Positions 9,147 to 14,717 of a stretch of 34,295 nt of DNA are shown here, piece after piece (the stretch's first letter is position 1; the number at the start of each line of letters is the position of its first letter). The DNA is from a bacterium (GTDB taxonomy: Bacteria > Patescibacteriota > Minisyncoccia > UBA10092), in the NCBI GenBank assembly GCA_021790275.1, contig JAJYIB010000003.1, positions 1-34,295 of the forward strand. The letters are read 5' to 3'. Made by a program: the position numbers and the translations under genes. The notes under the pieces are model-generated. The model was not told the origin of the DNA and ran no database searches. It saw only the letters and a program-made list of their open reading frames with translations.

Positions 9147-9218
9147 CCCCTTGTCGTTCAATGGACAGGACGCGAGATTGCGGATCTCGTAATGCAGGTT
9201 CGATTCCTGCCGAGGGGA
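9147..9218 (+). tRNA. tRNA-Arg(GCG), CCA not encoded
   Basis: Acceptor CCCCTTG/CGAGGGG, anticodon stem CGAGA/TCTCG with loop TTGCGGA, T-arm GCAGG-TTCGATT-CCTGC. Confidence 0.93.
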
Positions 9219-9221
9219 CAT

Positions 9222-11366
9222 ATGCCATCATTTCTCGACGAGCCGATTGGAAACATAAGATATTTTGCACCGGCGGCGGTAAAAAAGCTGGCGAGATTGA
9301 AAATAGCGACCGTGCGCGATCTGCTGTATCATTTTCCTTCGCGCTACGATGATTTTTCCGATTTTATTCCGATCGCCGACGCCAAACCCGATTGCGCGGC
9401 CACTATTAGCGGCGAAATTTTAAGCGCGAAAAATATCCGCACTTTCAAAAAGCGGATGATGATCACCGAAATCGTCGTCGGCGACGAATCCGGAGAAATA
9501 AACGCGGTGTGGTTTAACCAGCCGTATCTTTTGAATCAATTTCAAACGGGCCGGCGGATAAATCTGTCGGGAAAAATCGCGCCGAACAAAAAACGGCTTT
9601 GCTTTTCCAATCCGGCTTATGAAATCGCCGACTCCGGCCGCGGCGGAAGTTTGCGGCAAAAAGAACCGCTTCACACCGGCCGGCTGGTGCCGGTCTATCC
9701 CGAAACTTACGGCCTTACATCCCGCTGGCTGAGATCGATTATCAAACCGCTTTTGAAATTCGCCGGCCGCGCGCCCGATGTCTTGCCGGCCGAATTGAGA
9801 AAAGAAAACAATCTTCCGGATTTTGAAAGCGCGATGGCGCAGATTCATTTTCCCGCAAGCGTCGAAAATGCCGCTTCCGCCAAGCGCCGCTTCGCTTTCG
9901 AAGAGCTTTTTATCCTGCAGATGTTTATGGGATTGAATCGCCTGAAATTTCAACGCCAAACCGCGCCGGCGGTTCCTTTCGACGAAAATGCGGCGAAAAA
10001 ATTCGTCAAAACATTGCCGTTCGAACTGACCGGCGACCAAAAAAAAGCCGCCTGGCAAATTATCGGCGATATGTCGCAAAATCGGCCGATGAACCGCCTG
10101 CTCGAAGGCGATGTCGGCAGCGGCAAAACGATTGTCGCCGCGATGGCGGCGTATCTGGCCGCTTTGAAAAATTTTCAGACGGCGTTTATGGCGCCGACGG
10201 AAATTTTGAGCCGACAGCATTTCGAAAAAATCGCGCCGTTATTCGCAAAATCCGGCATCGCCGCCGGGCTTTTGACTTCTTCCGAATCCAGAATTTTCTC
10301 AAATTCCGGCGAAAAAATTTCGAGAAAAAAATTTTTGGAAAAAGTCGCCGACGGAGAAATAAAAATTTTAATCGGCACTCATGCTTTGGTCCAAAAAAGC
10401 GTAAGATTCAAAAATCTGGCGCTGGCGATCGTCGATGAACAGCACCGTTTCGGCGTAAATCACCGCGCCGCTTTGTTAAAAAACGGAAGCGGCGCTCCGC
10501 CTGGCGGAACGCCGCTCGTCCCCCATCTTTTGTCGATGTCGGCCACCCCGATTCCGAGAACCTTGGGCCTGACAATATGGGGAGATCTCGATTTGTCGCT
10601 TATACAGGAAATGCCGAAAGGAAGAAAAAACATAATCACCAAAATAACGGCGCCGGCCGAAAGAAGCGAGGTTTACGAATTCATCAGGAACGAAATCAAA
10701 AACGGCCGGCAGGCGTTTGTGGTCTGTCCGCTTGTCGAAGTGTCGGAAAAATTGTCGGCAAAATCCGCCGAAGGCCGCGAAATAAAAGCGGCAAAAAAAG
10801 AACAGGCGTTTTTACAAGAAAAAATTTTTCCCGAATTGAAAATCGGATTGCTTCACGGCCGATTGAAGCCGAAAGAAAAAGAAAAAACGATGGCGGAATT
10901 TTTGAACCGGAATCTCGATATTTTGGCGACCACTTCGGTTGTCGAAGTCGGCGTCGATATTCCGAACGCTTCCGTAATGATGATAGAAGGCGCCGACCGG
11001 TTCGGCCTCGCCTCGCTTCATCAATTCCGCGGCCGCGTCGGCCGCGGTAAACACCAGTCGTATTGCTTTTTAATGGCCGATTCGCCGTCGGCGCAAACCA
11101 GCAAAAGATTAAAAGCGCTGGAATCGGCGCAAAACGGCTTCAAGCTGGCTGAACGCGACCTGGAAATTCGCGGCCCGGGCGATTTTACCGGTATTCGCCA
11201 ATCGGGACTCCCCGATTTGGCGATCGCCTCGCTTGCGGATTTGCGGCTTGTCGAAGAAACCCGCGAAGCCGCCCGAAAAATTTTATCCCGCGATCCCAAT
11301 CTGAAAAATTATCCGATTTTGAAATCCCGTCTTGCGGAATTCCGAAACAGAGTTCATTTAGAGTAA
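9222..11366 (+). CDS. recG: ATP-dependent DNA helicase RecG
   Basis: Wedge domain, MNRLLEGDVGSGKT, MAPTEILS, DEQHRFG, MSATPIPRT, QFRGRVGRG, DLEIRGPG. Start moved to ATG 9222 because ATG 9192 lies inside the tRNA. Confidence 0.97.
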   Translation: MPSFLDEPIGNIRYFAPAAVKKLARLKIATVRDLLYHFPSRYDDFSDFIPIADAKPDCAATISGEILSAKNIRTFKKRMMITEIVVGDESGEINAVWFNQPYLLNQFQTGRRINLSGKIAPNKKRLCFSNPAYEIADSGRGGSLRQKEPLHTGRLVPVYPETYGLTSRWLRSIIKPLLKFAGRAPDVLPAELRKENNLPDFESAMAQIHFPASVENAASAKRRFAFEELFILQMFMGLNRLKFQRQTAPAVPFDENAAKKFVKTLPFELTGDQKKAAWQIIGDMSQNRPMNRLLEGDVGSGKTIVAAMAAYLAALKNFQTAFMAPTEILSRQHFEKIAPLFAKSGIAAGLLTSSESRIFSNSGEKISRKKFLEKVADGEIKILIGTHALVQKSVRFKNLALAIVDEQHRFGVNHRAALLKNGSGAPPGGTPLVPHLLSMSATPIPRTLGLTIWGDLDLSLIQEMPKGRKNIITKITAPAERSEVYEFIRNEIKNGRQAFVVCPLVEVSEKLSAKSAEGREIKAAKKEQAFLQEKIFPELKIGLLHGRLKPKEKEKTMAEFLNRNLDILATTSVVEVGVDIPNASVMMIEGADRFGLASLHQFRGRVGRGKHQSYCFLMADSPSAQTSKRLKALESAQNGFKLAERDLEIRGPGDFTGIRQSGLPDLAIASLADLRLVEETREAARKILSRDPNLKNYPILKSRLAEFRNRVHLE

Positions 11367-11389
11367 ATTTAAAAACCTGTGAACAATTA

Positions 11390-11419
11390 TTTACACTTAC
11401 CAATATGTTGTGCTAGTAT
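11390..11419 (+). promoter_or_regulatory. Putative sigma-70 promoter for a small RNA
   Basis: TTTACA(11390-11395)-18-TAGTAT(11414-11419) with extended -10 TG at 11411-11412; no + strand gene follows. Confidence 0.5.
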
Positions 11420-11424
11420 AAAAA

Positions 11425-11481
11425 TGATCGAAAGATCACGAATTCTAGAGCTAGGGGGCCCCTTTACCTGGGGTCCTCTTT
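11425..11481 (+). ncRNA. Putative small RNA convergent with and overlapping the NYN gene 3' end
   Basis: 5' hairpin TGATC-GAAA-GATCA; 3' stem GGGGGCCCC/GGGGTCCTC that pairs fully only on + (two G-U pairs), then TTT. Confidence 0.45.
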
Positions 11482-12222
11482 GCGTTCTAATTCCCTTTTC
11501 CAACATATAAAATCGCGAATTTTTTGAATATCAAAAATCATAAGCCCCTTTTCAACCAGGGTGGATAATTCTTTAGAAACCTTCCGAACGGTTGCAAACA
11601 AAATTACCTTTTTCCCAGCACTCATTAATTTTTCAATCGGATCGGCGAAATCACTATCTCCGCTCCATAGTATAAAAGTTTCTGCGCTATTTCGCTCGCA
11701 ATCAAGAAGCATATCTACGCCTATTTCAACATCAAAATTGCATTTCATATCTTTAATAAAATATTCTCCCTTTTTATTCATATCCTTGAATCTTTCATTT
11801 AAATACTCAATAGTTGTGATTTCATATTTTTTTAAAAGCGCTCGGCGAATAAACTGGCTGATTAATACTGTTGAATCGGGTAAAATACTTGAAACATCAA
11901 TAGAAAGTTCCATAATTTTTACAGGTTTTGTTCTAAGAAAATATTTATTATTCTCTGCTTCCGTTTTTTCTTTCTCTGATCTTTCATCTCCAGCCAAATA
12001 ACCATTATAAAAATTAACTGCCTCAATAGTATCAAAAGAATCCAGAAATTGTTTTAATCTCCTCAGTTCAATATGCCATCCGAGTTTTTCACTCCACGGA
12101 CGCACATTTGCATAATCAATATAAACACGAGTTTTTGCGCTAAGAATGTTATTGAGTTGTTTGATAACCCGCTGCTTATTCTTTGCGATATTTTCAATTT
12201 TCACTGTTTTTGGCGTAAACAT
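11464..12222 (-). CDS. NYN domain protein (LabA/DUF88, PIN-like ribonuclease fold)
   Basis: VYIDYANV, KCNFDVEIGVD and LWSGDSDFADP acidic active-site motifs; AT-rich. Confidence 0.92.
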   Translation of the reverse strand: MFTPKTVKIENIAKNKQRVIKQLNNILSAKTRVYIDYANVRPWSEKLGWHIELRRLKQFLDSFDTIEAVNFYNGYLAGDERSEKEKTEAENNKYFLRTKPVKIMELSIDVSSILPDSTVLISQFIRRALLKKYEITTIEYLNERFKDMNKKGEYFIKDMKCNFDVEIGVDMLLDCERNSAETFILWSGDSDFADPIEKLMSAGKKVILFATVRKVSKELSTLVEKGLMIFDIQKIRDFICWKRELERKEDPR

Positions 12223-12226
12223 ATAA

Positions 12227-12439
12227 TCAACTTATTTTCTGATATCGATAATTATATCGAATATTGTCATTAAGAAATTGTCCATGTGATGATGCGTGTA
12301 AAAATTGCCGATACAAATGTTCTGGCACATTGAAATATTGATATACATCACCAGAAATAAACTCCACTTCCAAAGTATTCAACTGTTGGTCGTATCCAAT
12401 TGAGCGGATATTTGATGACGATACTGATATTCTACGCAT
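12227..12439 (-). CDS. KTSC domain protein
   Basis: VSSSNIRSIGYD...LEVEF..G.VYQYFNVP...Y..F..ASSHGQFLN..IR matches the KTSC consensus. Confidence 0.93.
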   Translation of the reverse strand: MRRISVSSSNIRSIGYDQQLNTLEVEFISGDVYQYFNVPEHLYRQFLHASSHGQFLNDNIRYNYRYQKIS

Positions 12440-12474
12440 AATTATTTTTTGCGTTTTTGGTATTTAAAAAAATA

Positions 12475-13077
12475 TTATTTAATTGACCTGATATATTTAT
12501 CCTTATAATTTTTAATATCTTTATATTCAACCCAAAAATCCGTAGACCCGGTTTGTCTTATTGTACCATTTGCTCCTTTGTAATATTTTTTACCAAATAC
12601 CATTTTTGCTTTCCTATCTGAAAGAATATAACAATTTATTTTACGATTTTTTCACCAAGTCGCAACATCAACAAAAACATAATATAAATTTACGTCAAAA
12701 TCATTTTTTAATGACACTGATTGTTTTAAATTTTTCCCGTTAATTTTTATATCGCAAAAAGTTCTCGCATTTTGCCGCACCCAAACTGGCTTATTATCCT
12801 GAGCTACTGTTGTAGCCTTGGCATGAAAAAACAACACCTTCCCATTAAACTTTAATCCAATATCCCAATTTTTATTAGAATTTCCAGCATATATAATATC
12901 ATTCTCCAATAAAGATGACAGGTCATTCCCATAAGTTGCTAGAAGTTGTTTTAAAACCAACAACTCGCCTATAAATCCCCTATCAAAAGGTTTGTTGCAT
13001 AAATTTCTAAATCTCCAGCAATCATTTAACATTTTATCCGTTAACATTTTCCACTTTTTATATGTTTTTTTGTCCAT
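12475..13077 (-). pseudogene. PD-(D/E)xK restriction-endonuclease-like gene interrupted by one in-frame TGA
   Basis: GFIGELLV..WDI..FFHAKAT motif. After TGA at 12654-12652 the same frame stays open 58 more codons to TAA 12477-12475 (200 aa in total). Confidence 0.6.
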
Positions 13078-13089
13078 AATTTTTATATT

Positions 13090-14646
13090 TCATCTCGATT
13101 TCGGCGTGTTCCAAAAGCCCATATATTTTCCGAGCGCCAGGCGGGTTTGCGCGTCCAAAGCCGGAACGGCGCCGAAAACGACCATATTCACAGGCAGTAA
13201 AATCCATTGCAAAACCATTAAAATATACCTGAGACGCCCTCGATAAAGCGGTTTCGGCGGCAGAAGATAAATCGCCAAAACGGCGGTAAACACCAGCCCG
13301 CCCATCGCCAAAGTCATAATCCAGCGCGTAATGAACGGCAGATTGTAGGAAAGCAGAGTGTCGGAAAATCCGCCGCGACCGATAAGCGTCGGCAGCCAGC
13401 CCAGAAGAAAGATAATCAGCGAATTGGTCGCCAGCGAATGAGCGCCTTCGATCATATTGAATCCCAAACTCCATTTTTTACTCGCCGCTATCCTGCCGTT
13501 TTTCGAAAATCCATAAAGAAAATAGGCGTTGTTTTCGACGCCGTAGGCCCAGCGGCGGATCTGTTTGTATTGGTTTTTCATCGTCCGCCAAAATGTGGCG
13601 GCGACGTTGGCATCCATATAGATCGGGAAAAAAAGAGGCGCGGTGCGCCAGTCGCCGTCGAAATTCAAAAGACACTGCCAAAAAATCCGCGAATCTTCGC
13701 TGACGACATTGGTTTGCCAGAAACCGATTTCGGCAAGCGGCTTGAATCCGATCGATTGAGAAGAAAAAGTGATGAGCCGCTCGGGGCGCGCCTGCTGAAT
13801 CATCTGCCAGAAAGTCGTTGAAAATGCGAAAACTCGCGCGAAAGCCGGCGCCTGCCAGATATTATTCGTGAAAAGAGGAATCGGCTGAAAAGAAGAGCGC
13901 AGAGGGTATTGTGCCGTCAGGTAATAATATGTCAGACAACCGAAAAAATCCCGGTGAACGACGGAATCGACATCGAAACAGGAAACGATTATCCGCTCGT
14001 AAGGAATTTCAAGCGCGTCGATAATTTCGCTTTTCGCTTTTTTGATCGCCCAAGCGTCGTTACTGCCCTTGCCCGCGATTTCTCCCGCGATATCCGCCGG
14101 ATGGACCGAAATCAAAAATTTAAAAAACTTGCCGCCGAATTCGCGATTTATTTTTTCGGCGATATCCAAAGCCGGTTTGCCGCCTCTTGCTTCGACCGCC
14201 AGAACTGCGATTATTTTTTCCAGAGGATAATTCGATGCTATCAAACTTTCAAAACTTGCCCGCACGACTTCGAGCGGCTCTTGATACATCGGCAAAATAA
14301 CAAGATGATAGATATCGCTCCATTTGGCGTTTTTAAGATCCGGCGAAACGGGAACGGCGCGTTCAATTTCGCCGCGCCAGTTTTTTTTAAGATTTTCATT
14401 CATCCGGTTGAAAGCCGACCTCATATGGAGCGATAAAAAAATAGTTTTCAAAAGCCAGTAAACATCGAAAGCGATGATAAAAACGGCCGCCCAAAAAGGC
14501 AAAAATCGAGAAAGCGCGACAACGGCAATAAGAGTCAGCCACGACAAAAACGCCGGCAGAATTTCTAAAAACCGGTAATACCGCCTTCTTTTCGCATCGG
14601 CGATTTCGGAAGCGCGGCCGACGGTCAGATATGAATCGTTTTTCAT
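13090..14646 (-). CDS. Membrane glycosyltransferase family 2 (CPR-type)
   Basis: ILPMYQEP, GKGSN, FDVD (DxD), VSEDS and QIRRW (QxxRW), with N- and C-terminal TM helices. Start moved to ATG 14646. Confidence 0.9.
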   Translation of the reverse strand: MKNDSYLTVGRASEIADAKRRRYYRFLEILPAFLSWLTLIAVVALSRFLPFWAAVFIIAFDVYWLLKTIFLSLHMRSAFNRMNENLKKNWRGEIERAVPVSPDLKNAKWSDIYHLVILPMYQEPLEVVRASFESLIASNYPLEKIIAVLAVEARGGKPALDIAEKINREFGGKFFKFLISVHPADIAGEIAGKGSNDAWAIKKAKSEIIDALEIPYERIIVSCFDVDSVVHRDFFGCLTYYYLTAQYPLRSSFQPIPLFTNNIWQAPAFARVFAFSTTFWQMIQQARPERLITFSSQSIGFKPLAEIGFWQTNVVSEDSRIFWQCLLNFDGDWRTAPLFFPIYMDANVAATFWRTMKNQYKQIRRWAYGVENNAYFLYGFSKNGRIAASKKWSLGFNMIEGAHSLATNSLIIFLLGWLPTLIGRGGFSDTLLSYNLPFITRWIMTLAMGGLVFTAVLAIYLLPPKPLYRGRLRYILMVLQWILLPVNMVVFGAVPALDAQTRLALGKYMGFWNTPKSR

Positions 14647-14688
14647 AAAATCGGCACGAAATCGGTCAAAAGAGTTATAACACGGAAA

Positions 14689-14717
14689 TTGCAAAAAGTT
14701 AAAGAATCCGCTAAAAT
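14689..14717 (+). promoter_or_regulatory. Promoter of the tRNA-Glu-tsaD-valS unit
   Basis: TTGCAA-17-TAAAAT ending 11 nt before the tRNA. Confidence 0.65.

Follow-up and report, generated by a model that had tools for sequence, protein, structure and literature searches.

A predicted small-RNA gene convergent with an NYN-domain nuclease gene: a conserved pair in a mobile cassette and a tentative antisense, antitoxin-like role

In the txpA/RatA and bsrG/SR4 pairs of Bacillus subtilis, the 3′ end of the toxin gene is overlapped by a convergent antisense RNA, which is short and transcribed from a strong promoter. From 5′ to 3′, these RNAs form a hairpin, an unpaired stretch and a terminator hairpin, and the toxin is a small membrane peptide. 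In SymE/SymR and RalR/RalA of Escherichia coli, an RNA antitoxin controls a nuclease-like toxin; of the two RNAs, SymR overlaps its target at the 5′ end, and RalA is trans-acting. In the type III systems (ToxIN, CptIN and TenpIN), which are linked to phage defence, the RNA consists of tandem repeats, lies on the toxin strand ahead of the toxin gene and is processed by the toxin itself. To our knowledge, almost no small RNAs have been characterised in bacteria of the candidate phyla, whose genomes are tiny.

Here, we describe a predicted small RNA that converges on the gene of an NYN-domain protein in one of these bacteria. In the window (the whole stretch of DNA analysed, 34,295 nt), the longest open reading frame of recG (9192–11366, plus strand) converges with that of NYN, leaving a gap of 97 nt, and the RNA gene extends from this gap into the end of NYN (Table 1). 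The NYN stop codon lies within the loop of the second RNA hairpin and the last NYN codons are in its 3′ arm.

Table 1. Features of the RNA–NYN locus in the window.
Feature	Position	Strand	Remarks
Degenerate 9-mer copy (2 mismatches)	11378–11386	+	From the G001 alignment; upstream of the −35 box
Sigma-70-type promoter of the small RNA (predicted)	11390–11419	+	−35, 11390–11395; TG, 11411–11412; −10, 11414–11419
Predicted small RNA	11425–11486	+	About 62 nt; 5′ end inferred from the promoter, 3′ end from the U-rich tail
Hairpin 1	11425–11438	+	5 bp, GAAA tetraloop
Single-stranded linker	11439–11452	+	14 nt; four positions invariant across the family
Hairpin 2	11453–11479	+	10 bp including two G·U pairs
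U-rich tail	11480–11486	+	Invariant GC dinucleotide
NYN-domain nuclease gene	11464–12222	−	252 aa; PF01936
KTSC-domain gene	12227–12439	−	70 aa; ends 4 nt before NYN begins; third, optional cassette component
KTSC–NYN–RNA cassette	11365–12450		Nucleotide homology with other copies; about 1.05 kb

By analogy, the arrangement would work most like the convergent type I pairs of Bacillus. It shares with txpA/RatA and bsrG/SR4 a convergent RNA that overlaps the 3′ end of its partner, the same build of the RNA, RNase III encoded in the genome and the character of a small mobile module. Type I toxins are small, usually hydrophobic peptides, whereas the partner here is a 252-aa protein with a soluble-type nuclease fold. 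The RNA also differs in retaining invariant unpaired bases and a G·U pair over deep divergence, and pairing and toxicity are presumed in our case. In combining an RNA with a nucleic-acid-cutting protein instead of a membrane peptide, the pair resembles SymE/SymR and RalR/RalA, but the NYN fold differs from the folds of those proteins and the RNA is located at the 3′ end. As in ToxIN, CptIN and TenpIN, an endoribonuclease (here predicted) is accompanied by a short structured RNA that diverges together with it. However, this RNA is single-copy, convergent and overlapping, and its partner has the NYN fold. The likeness to type III systems raised in a preliminary description of the locus thus breaks down at their defining layout, since the RNA is not on the toxin strand and a repeat search of 10800–13300 returned no tandem array.

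The pair itself appears to be undescribed, as had been supposed. Full-text literature searches, which covered main texts, returned no description of an NYN gene paired with a small RNA and no paper on KTSC with NYN. The main text of one preprint (10.64898/2026.10.21.760802) contains no occurrence of NYN, Patescibacteria, antitoxin or LabA. Only tRNAs were found in the window at the gathering level of Rfam 15, and the best matches within 11300–11560 (E up to 10) reached 11–20 bits, compared to cut-offs of 36–88 bits.

A promoter scan of the window identified the site upstream of the RNA with 9 of 12 matches, a spacer of 18 nt and a TG before the second hexamer, in agreement with the extended −10 promoter that had been proposed on this strand. 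By itself this match is weak, since the surrounding AT-rich 2-kb region contains 11 such sites compared to 5.2 ± 2.6 in shuffled sequences. Two hexamers spaced within 16–18 nt and kept in position among relatives (see below) nevertheless make it a predicted sigma-70 promoter. The plus strand of 11420–11485 folds with −26.4 kcal/mol (z −3.26; equalled by none of 200 shuffles), whereas the opposite strand folds less well (−17.1 kcal/mol, z −1.05; 29 of 200 shuffles as good). This fold reproduces the GAAA-tetraloop hairpin and the G·U-dependent stem across the NYN stop and last codons that were originally noted. The stem may be closed by two further pairs (G11450–C11483 and C11451–G11482), and the tail could be either a weak terminator tract or part of this closing helix. 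Three T residues follow the stem in the window, as reported before, and are succeeded by GC; across the family, the 10 nt 3′ of the stem contain 5.4 T on average. A covariance model matches the window at 11408–11486 with 107 bits. From the hairpin 1 region to the end of the model, the family members are 60–71 nt long (mean 62.7), so that the earlier proposal of a short structured RNA holds while its estimated length of ∼55 nt should be raised to about 62 nt. Metatranscriptome contig sets (n = 3, from the same study, at 80% likeness) yielded a single 41-nt piece within NYN and none on the RNA, and are uninformative either way. The conservation and compensatory changes in related loci raise the hairpin above chance. 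Thus, based on comparative sequence evidence, we regard this element as a genuine small-RNA gene with its own sigma-70 promoter and presumed transcript, and as neither a chance hairpin nor the recG terminator alone.

In another genome of the same genus (G001), the NYN homologue (58% identical; PF01936, 56.5 bits) is encoded beside khpA/trmD, not recG. Its RNA has the same promoter, linker and tail, and both hairpins are present with compensatory changes. Since the NYN stop codon of this copy falls beyond the stem of hairpin 2, the stem is not maintained by coding. A first covariance model built from these two copies produced nine strong matches in 151 genomes (that of the window included), all nine convergent to an NYN homologue. 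RNA-first searches of two samples of 151 genomes, each including the genome of the window, gave 14 loci; all adjoin NYN, and three of them keep only a remnant of it. A protein-first search with one genome per species identified 456 confirmed NYN relatives, the best 80 of which (clade A, 55–86% identity) were examined. The RNA is found on the opposite strand at the end of the NYN gene in 78 of these 80 loci, and the other two are cut by the end of the contig inside NYN. None of the 78 loci with downstream DNA lacks the RNA, a count that overstates the independent support because the compared loci are kin. Two loci (L112 and L113) have a damaged-looking reading frame, one NYN copy being frameshifted and another containing an in-frame TGA at codon 44; both keep the RNA. 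In the latter case, either the gene is broken or its genome translates TGA as an amino acid.

The 77 distinct clade A RNAs have 93% of their cells paired, and 14 of 15 pairs change on both sides. None of 500 shuffles matches these values, and partners slid out of register are 33–71% paired. All five modelled pairs of hairpin 1 (the outer and four inner pairs) and nine of the ten pairs of hairpin 2 are changed on both sides, with the four inner pairs of hairpin 1 being 99.7% paired; as the alignments of this clade and of clade B (see below) were fitted to their models, these values are biased towards pairing, although the compensatory changes in clade A are also visible by eye. One pair of hairpin 2 is kept as G·U in 68 of the 77 rows (UG in 5 and GC in 3), which fixes the transcribed strand. 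Invariant positions in the 77 rows comprise four linker columns (78, 84, 85 and 86), one G–C pair of the stem and the GC of the tail (columns 118–119). Every part of the RNA is either conserved or paired, and the alignment of 77 rows contains no variable guide-like segment. The −35 and extended −10 elements keep their position across the 78 upstream regions, with 5 nt between the end of the −10 element and hairpin 1 in 69 of them. Of 74 loci in which the end of the NYN frame could be placed, 47 have it 21–48 nt within the RNA model and 26 no more than 3 nt from the model edge, and in one it stops 32 nt before the model; the genes thus overlap or abut in 73 of 74 cases.

A second NYN clade (clade B; L003, L004 and L147–L226) consists of proteins of 234–236 aa that are ∼32% identical to the NYN of the window. 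Its RNA looks different and follows the same plan, with a 9-mer by the −35 box, a promoter, a tetraloop hairpin and a short linker. The 3′ part is a stem closed by G–C pairs across a U-rich internal loop and followed by a U tail. A covariance model of this class places the RNA in all 80 metagenome loci, convergent to NYN in each and always enclosing the end of the NYN frame. All cells of these RNAs are paired, five of six hairpin 1 pairs are changed on both sides, and 62 of 66 rows retain a G·U pair. Judged by eye, the first linker bases 3′ of hairpin 1 are alike in the consensus of both classes. The RNA is also present on a 7.1-kb IMG/VR contig (L144) beside an NYN gene whose product is 44% identical. 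Judging from this copy and the second RNA class, the partnership is old and general for this NYN lineage. The original suggestion that the RNA travels with the NYN gene is therefore borne out by 78 of 78 clade A loci with downstream DNA and by all clade B loci. The comparison proposed at that time, of the DNA downstream of NYN homologues, revealed a conserved opposite-strand promoter and two hairpins, with covariation in both clades.

The NYN protein of the window matches PF01936 with 58 bits (cut-off 24.2), although only residues 152–220 are aligned, to profile positions 71–135. Its AF2 model has a pLDDT of 92.1, and Foldseek ranks VPA0982, a LabA-like NYN protein, first (PDB 2qip; E = 2.4e-07, target-normalised TM 0.75); the NYN domain of MARF1 (5yaa) is also among the matches (TM 0.68). 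Both share the fold, but are only 16% and 11% identical, and the window protein is ∼90 residues longer; compared with the minimal NYN fold of 2qip (162 residues), its model has an insertion and additional helices at the N-terminus. The titles of these two entries mention no RNA partner. Asp164, Glu166 and Asp191 are invariant in 74 NYN sequences, and Asp36, Asp170, Asp174 and Asp189 are at least 90% conserved. Model, structural matches and alignment thus agree on an NYN/PIN-like fold with a conserved acidic cluster, whose residues are presumably catalytic. Where its codons run antisense to the RNA stem, the C-terminal end of the protein is of variable length and modelled with low confidence, and looks like a by-product of the overlap with the RNA gene. 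NCBIfam contains no match for this protein, the best PDB sequence match has E = 0.23, and no match was found in plasmid or phage collections from cultured sources. PADLOC gave no full-length defence match, only partial ones to an NYN model (43.8 bits, residues 164–233) and to HEC-09 (31.3 bits). A CRISPR-associated NYN protein of Bacteroides fragilis is described as a Mn-dependent, sequence-nonspecific ssRNA nuclease that trims crRNA in a type III CRISPR locus (PMC11346440). It likewise is a bacterial NYN protein with a small structured RNA (here predicted), but no CRISPR genes are seen at the window locus.

The KTSC gene (PF13619, 85.6 bits) immediately precedes NYN in 42 of 78 loci of clade A and in none of 80 of clade B. 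Thus, judging from its distribution, KTSC is an optional component of the cassette, while the RNA is an obligate partner of NYN. A model of the KTSC–NYN complex scored 0.79, with 0.01 for the best of three controls; among solved complexes this mark was attained by 58 of 80, and among mismatched pairs by 2 of 110, a calibration that is only rough with self-made alignments. At least 96% of the contacts are shared by the runs, and the pLDDT of the partner is 90 or more. In this model, the C-terminal strand of KTSC is added to NYN residues 93–100, adjoining Asp170. The prediction supports binding of KTSC to NYN, and such a contact, if real, would be the first functional hint for the KTSC domain.

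In blastn comparisons of 10500–13500 with KTSC-bearing copies, homology begins at 11365–11426 and ends at 12441–12459; the RNA–NYN pair without KTSC spans ∼0.85 kb. Carriers are scattered, 8 being found among 150 relatives (E ≤ 3e-4) and 5 among 150 genomes drawn from the whole phylum. Flanking genes vary by locus, and recG adjoins only in this window. Restriction-modification genes are over-represented among the neighbours, with ResIII beyond the RNA in 13 of 69 loci, and Methylase_S (6/66), N6_N4_Mtase (4/66) and N6_Mtase (3/66) upstream, where one gene may match several families; the remaining neighbours are housekeeping genes. Together, the RNA, NYN and optional KTSC appear to constitute a cassette of ∼1 kb that moves between genomes. 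It carries no recombinase of its own, and no direct repeats bracket it within 10800–13300, where the longest direct families (28 nt, 70–75% identity) are not flanking. Two carriers are labelled as belonging outside the candidate phyla, a 3.04-Mb contig assigned to Acidobacteriota (L131) and a 449-kb contig assigned to Chitinophagaceae (L082). These two, with the IMG/VR copy, suggest that the cassette has spread past the candidate phyla, possibly by viruses. Solo copies of the RNA gene beside only the last 27–58 NYN codons (L033, L038 and L141) are apparent deletion remnants of the cassette.

In many related loci, the −35 box of the small-RNA promoter is directly adjoined by a 9-mer, which occurs in both orientations. 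With the copy at L004:1354–1362 as reference (another lies at about 2190–2198 of L003), exact matches were found in 16 of 78 clade A upstream regions (0.2 expected) and matches with at most one mismatch in 29 (1.7 expected); the corresponding values for clade B are 38 and 56 of 64. The 9-mer resembles the consensus of the DnaA box, and may tie transcription of the RNA to the replication initiator. The genome of the window contains 26 exact copies. Four copies, two of them exact, occur within 100 nt on another of its contigs (C2:23695–23795), and this cluster could be a replication origin; no cluster stands out next to dnaA (contig C35 of the same genome).

The geometry of the two genes is the strongest clue to mechanism. 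We favour, at a probability of roughly 0.45, a role of the small RNA as a cis-antisense, antitoxin-like repressor of NYN, in which transcription, pairing, repression and toxicity of NYN are all presumed. The NYN frame runs into, or up to the edge of, the RNA gene with no terminator between them. With the frame reaching the RNA gene and the complement of hairpin 2 lacking a T run after it, the 3′ end of the NYN mRNA should be complementary to the small RNA over its full length. An abundant small RNA would pair with this end, and the duplex would be cut or destabilised, e.g. by RNase III, which is encoded in this genome. The level of the nuclease would thereby stay low as long as the cassette is present and transcribed. 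The overlap has been kept over deep divergence, which argues for antisense action, as a partner that was merely co-inherited could sit anywhere nearby. Promoter, 5′ hairpin, open stretch, 3′ hairpin and convergence are, by analogy, the build of cis-antisense regulators. Loss also appears to be one-sided, with three of the 14 RNA loci keeping only an NYN remnant and none of the 78 NYN loci lacking the RNA, which fits an antidote that cannot be lost first, although the orphans number only three. Trans pairing with the NYN translation start was rejected, as the RNA has no excess complementarity to it (0 of 70 loci in the best 5% of windows, mean z +1.31). Antisense action is thus left with a 3′-end mechanism, usually a weaker way of silencing a gene. 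KTSC, which is predicted to bind NYN beside its acidic cluster, could be the real inhibitor where it is present.

Pairing alone does not explain the invariant linker bases, the invariant G–C pair and the kept G·U, because a cis-antisense RNA stays complementary to its target despite mutation. These positions, together with the tail GC, exceed the needs of pairing and would fit recognition by a protein. The RNA may accordingly bind the NYN protein directly (with KTSC where present). Bound in this way, much as type III antitoxins or nuclease cofactors are, it could inhibit the enzyme, serve as a scaffold, mimic its substrate or confer specificity as a subunit, and the overlap would be secondary. 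Retention of the G·U in both clades, the similar first linker bases of the two RNA classes, the joint divergence of RNA class and NYN clade, and the additional elements of the NYN fold are all consistent with such a ribonucleoprotein. It leaves unexplained why the convergent, overlapping geometry is retained in all 154 loci in which the end of the NYN frame could be placed, however, and an RNA devoid of a guide-like segment fits it less well. We consider it the main rival, at a lower probability than antisense repression. Antisense pairing and protein binding are not mutually exclusive. A bolder version, which we judge more doubtful still, is a nuclease module gated by the RNA, in which the RNA is an NYN-binding inhibitor or specificity subunit and its promoter is wired to the replication initiator via the DnaA-box-like site, the nuclease being released when replication or the cassette is disturbed (e.g. 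by a phage or by loss of the element). If true, this would be an RNA–protein system for addiction or defence, distinct from types I and III and spread through ultra-small bacteria and beyond.

Two readings dispense with a functional RNA. The hairpins and 9-mer could be DNA signals for movement or replication, comparable to a folded attC-type site or an initiator-binding site, with the RNA incidental. The element does lie at one end of the homology block common to the copies, a DnaA-box-like 9-mer abuts it in both orientations, and a cassette that lacks a recombinase is found at many insertion sites, often inside restriction-modification operons. A complete promoter held in position in 78 loci is not expected of such a site, and the conserved wobble pair and tetraloops are features of RNA. 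As flanking direct repeats are missing in this window, and the neighbour scans gave no array or integrase context, this explanation seems very improbable. Even less credible is that the stem is just a terminator shared by recG and NYN and the promoter a chance match, despite the convergent genes, the GC-rich stem with T residues after it, and the abundance of promoter-like matches in this AT-rich region. The stem is not merely the recG terminator, since recG adjoins in this window only and the element follows NYN elsewhere (e.g. beside khpA/trmD in G001); the case in which the preliminary description would have been abandoned, a recG terminator devoid of conservation, did not materialise. In addition, hairpin 1, the linker and the promoter are conserved with the stem, which on the NYN strand has mismatches and no T run after it, and the terminator scan does not list the site. 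Antisense repression is the preferred reading, with part of the probability assigned to none of these explanations.

Strong covariation, a defined promoter and a fixed protein partner characterise this structured RNA family, which is found in hundreds of genomes and metagenome contigs and is absent from Rfam. That the pair travels as a small mobile unit through hundreds of ultra-small bacteria suggests a hitherto undescribed module in which an RNA controls a nuclease. Should the RNA restrain the enzyme, it would add either a widely mobile RNA antitoxin that overlaps the 3′ end of a nuclease toxin gene or a new RNA–protein module. It would also help to explain how a cassette lacking a recombinase persists inside restriction-modification operons.

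Just past the cassette, two minus-strand open reading frames (12652–13077, 141 aa; 13090–14694, 534 aa) belong to no Pfam, NCBIfam or PADLOC family. On the other side, a tRNA (59.1 bits) at 9147–9218 overlaps the first codons of the longest recG frame, and the true start of recG is therefore probably further downstream than 9192.
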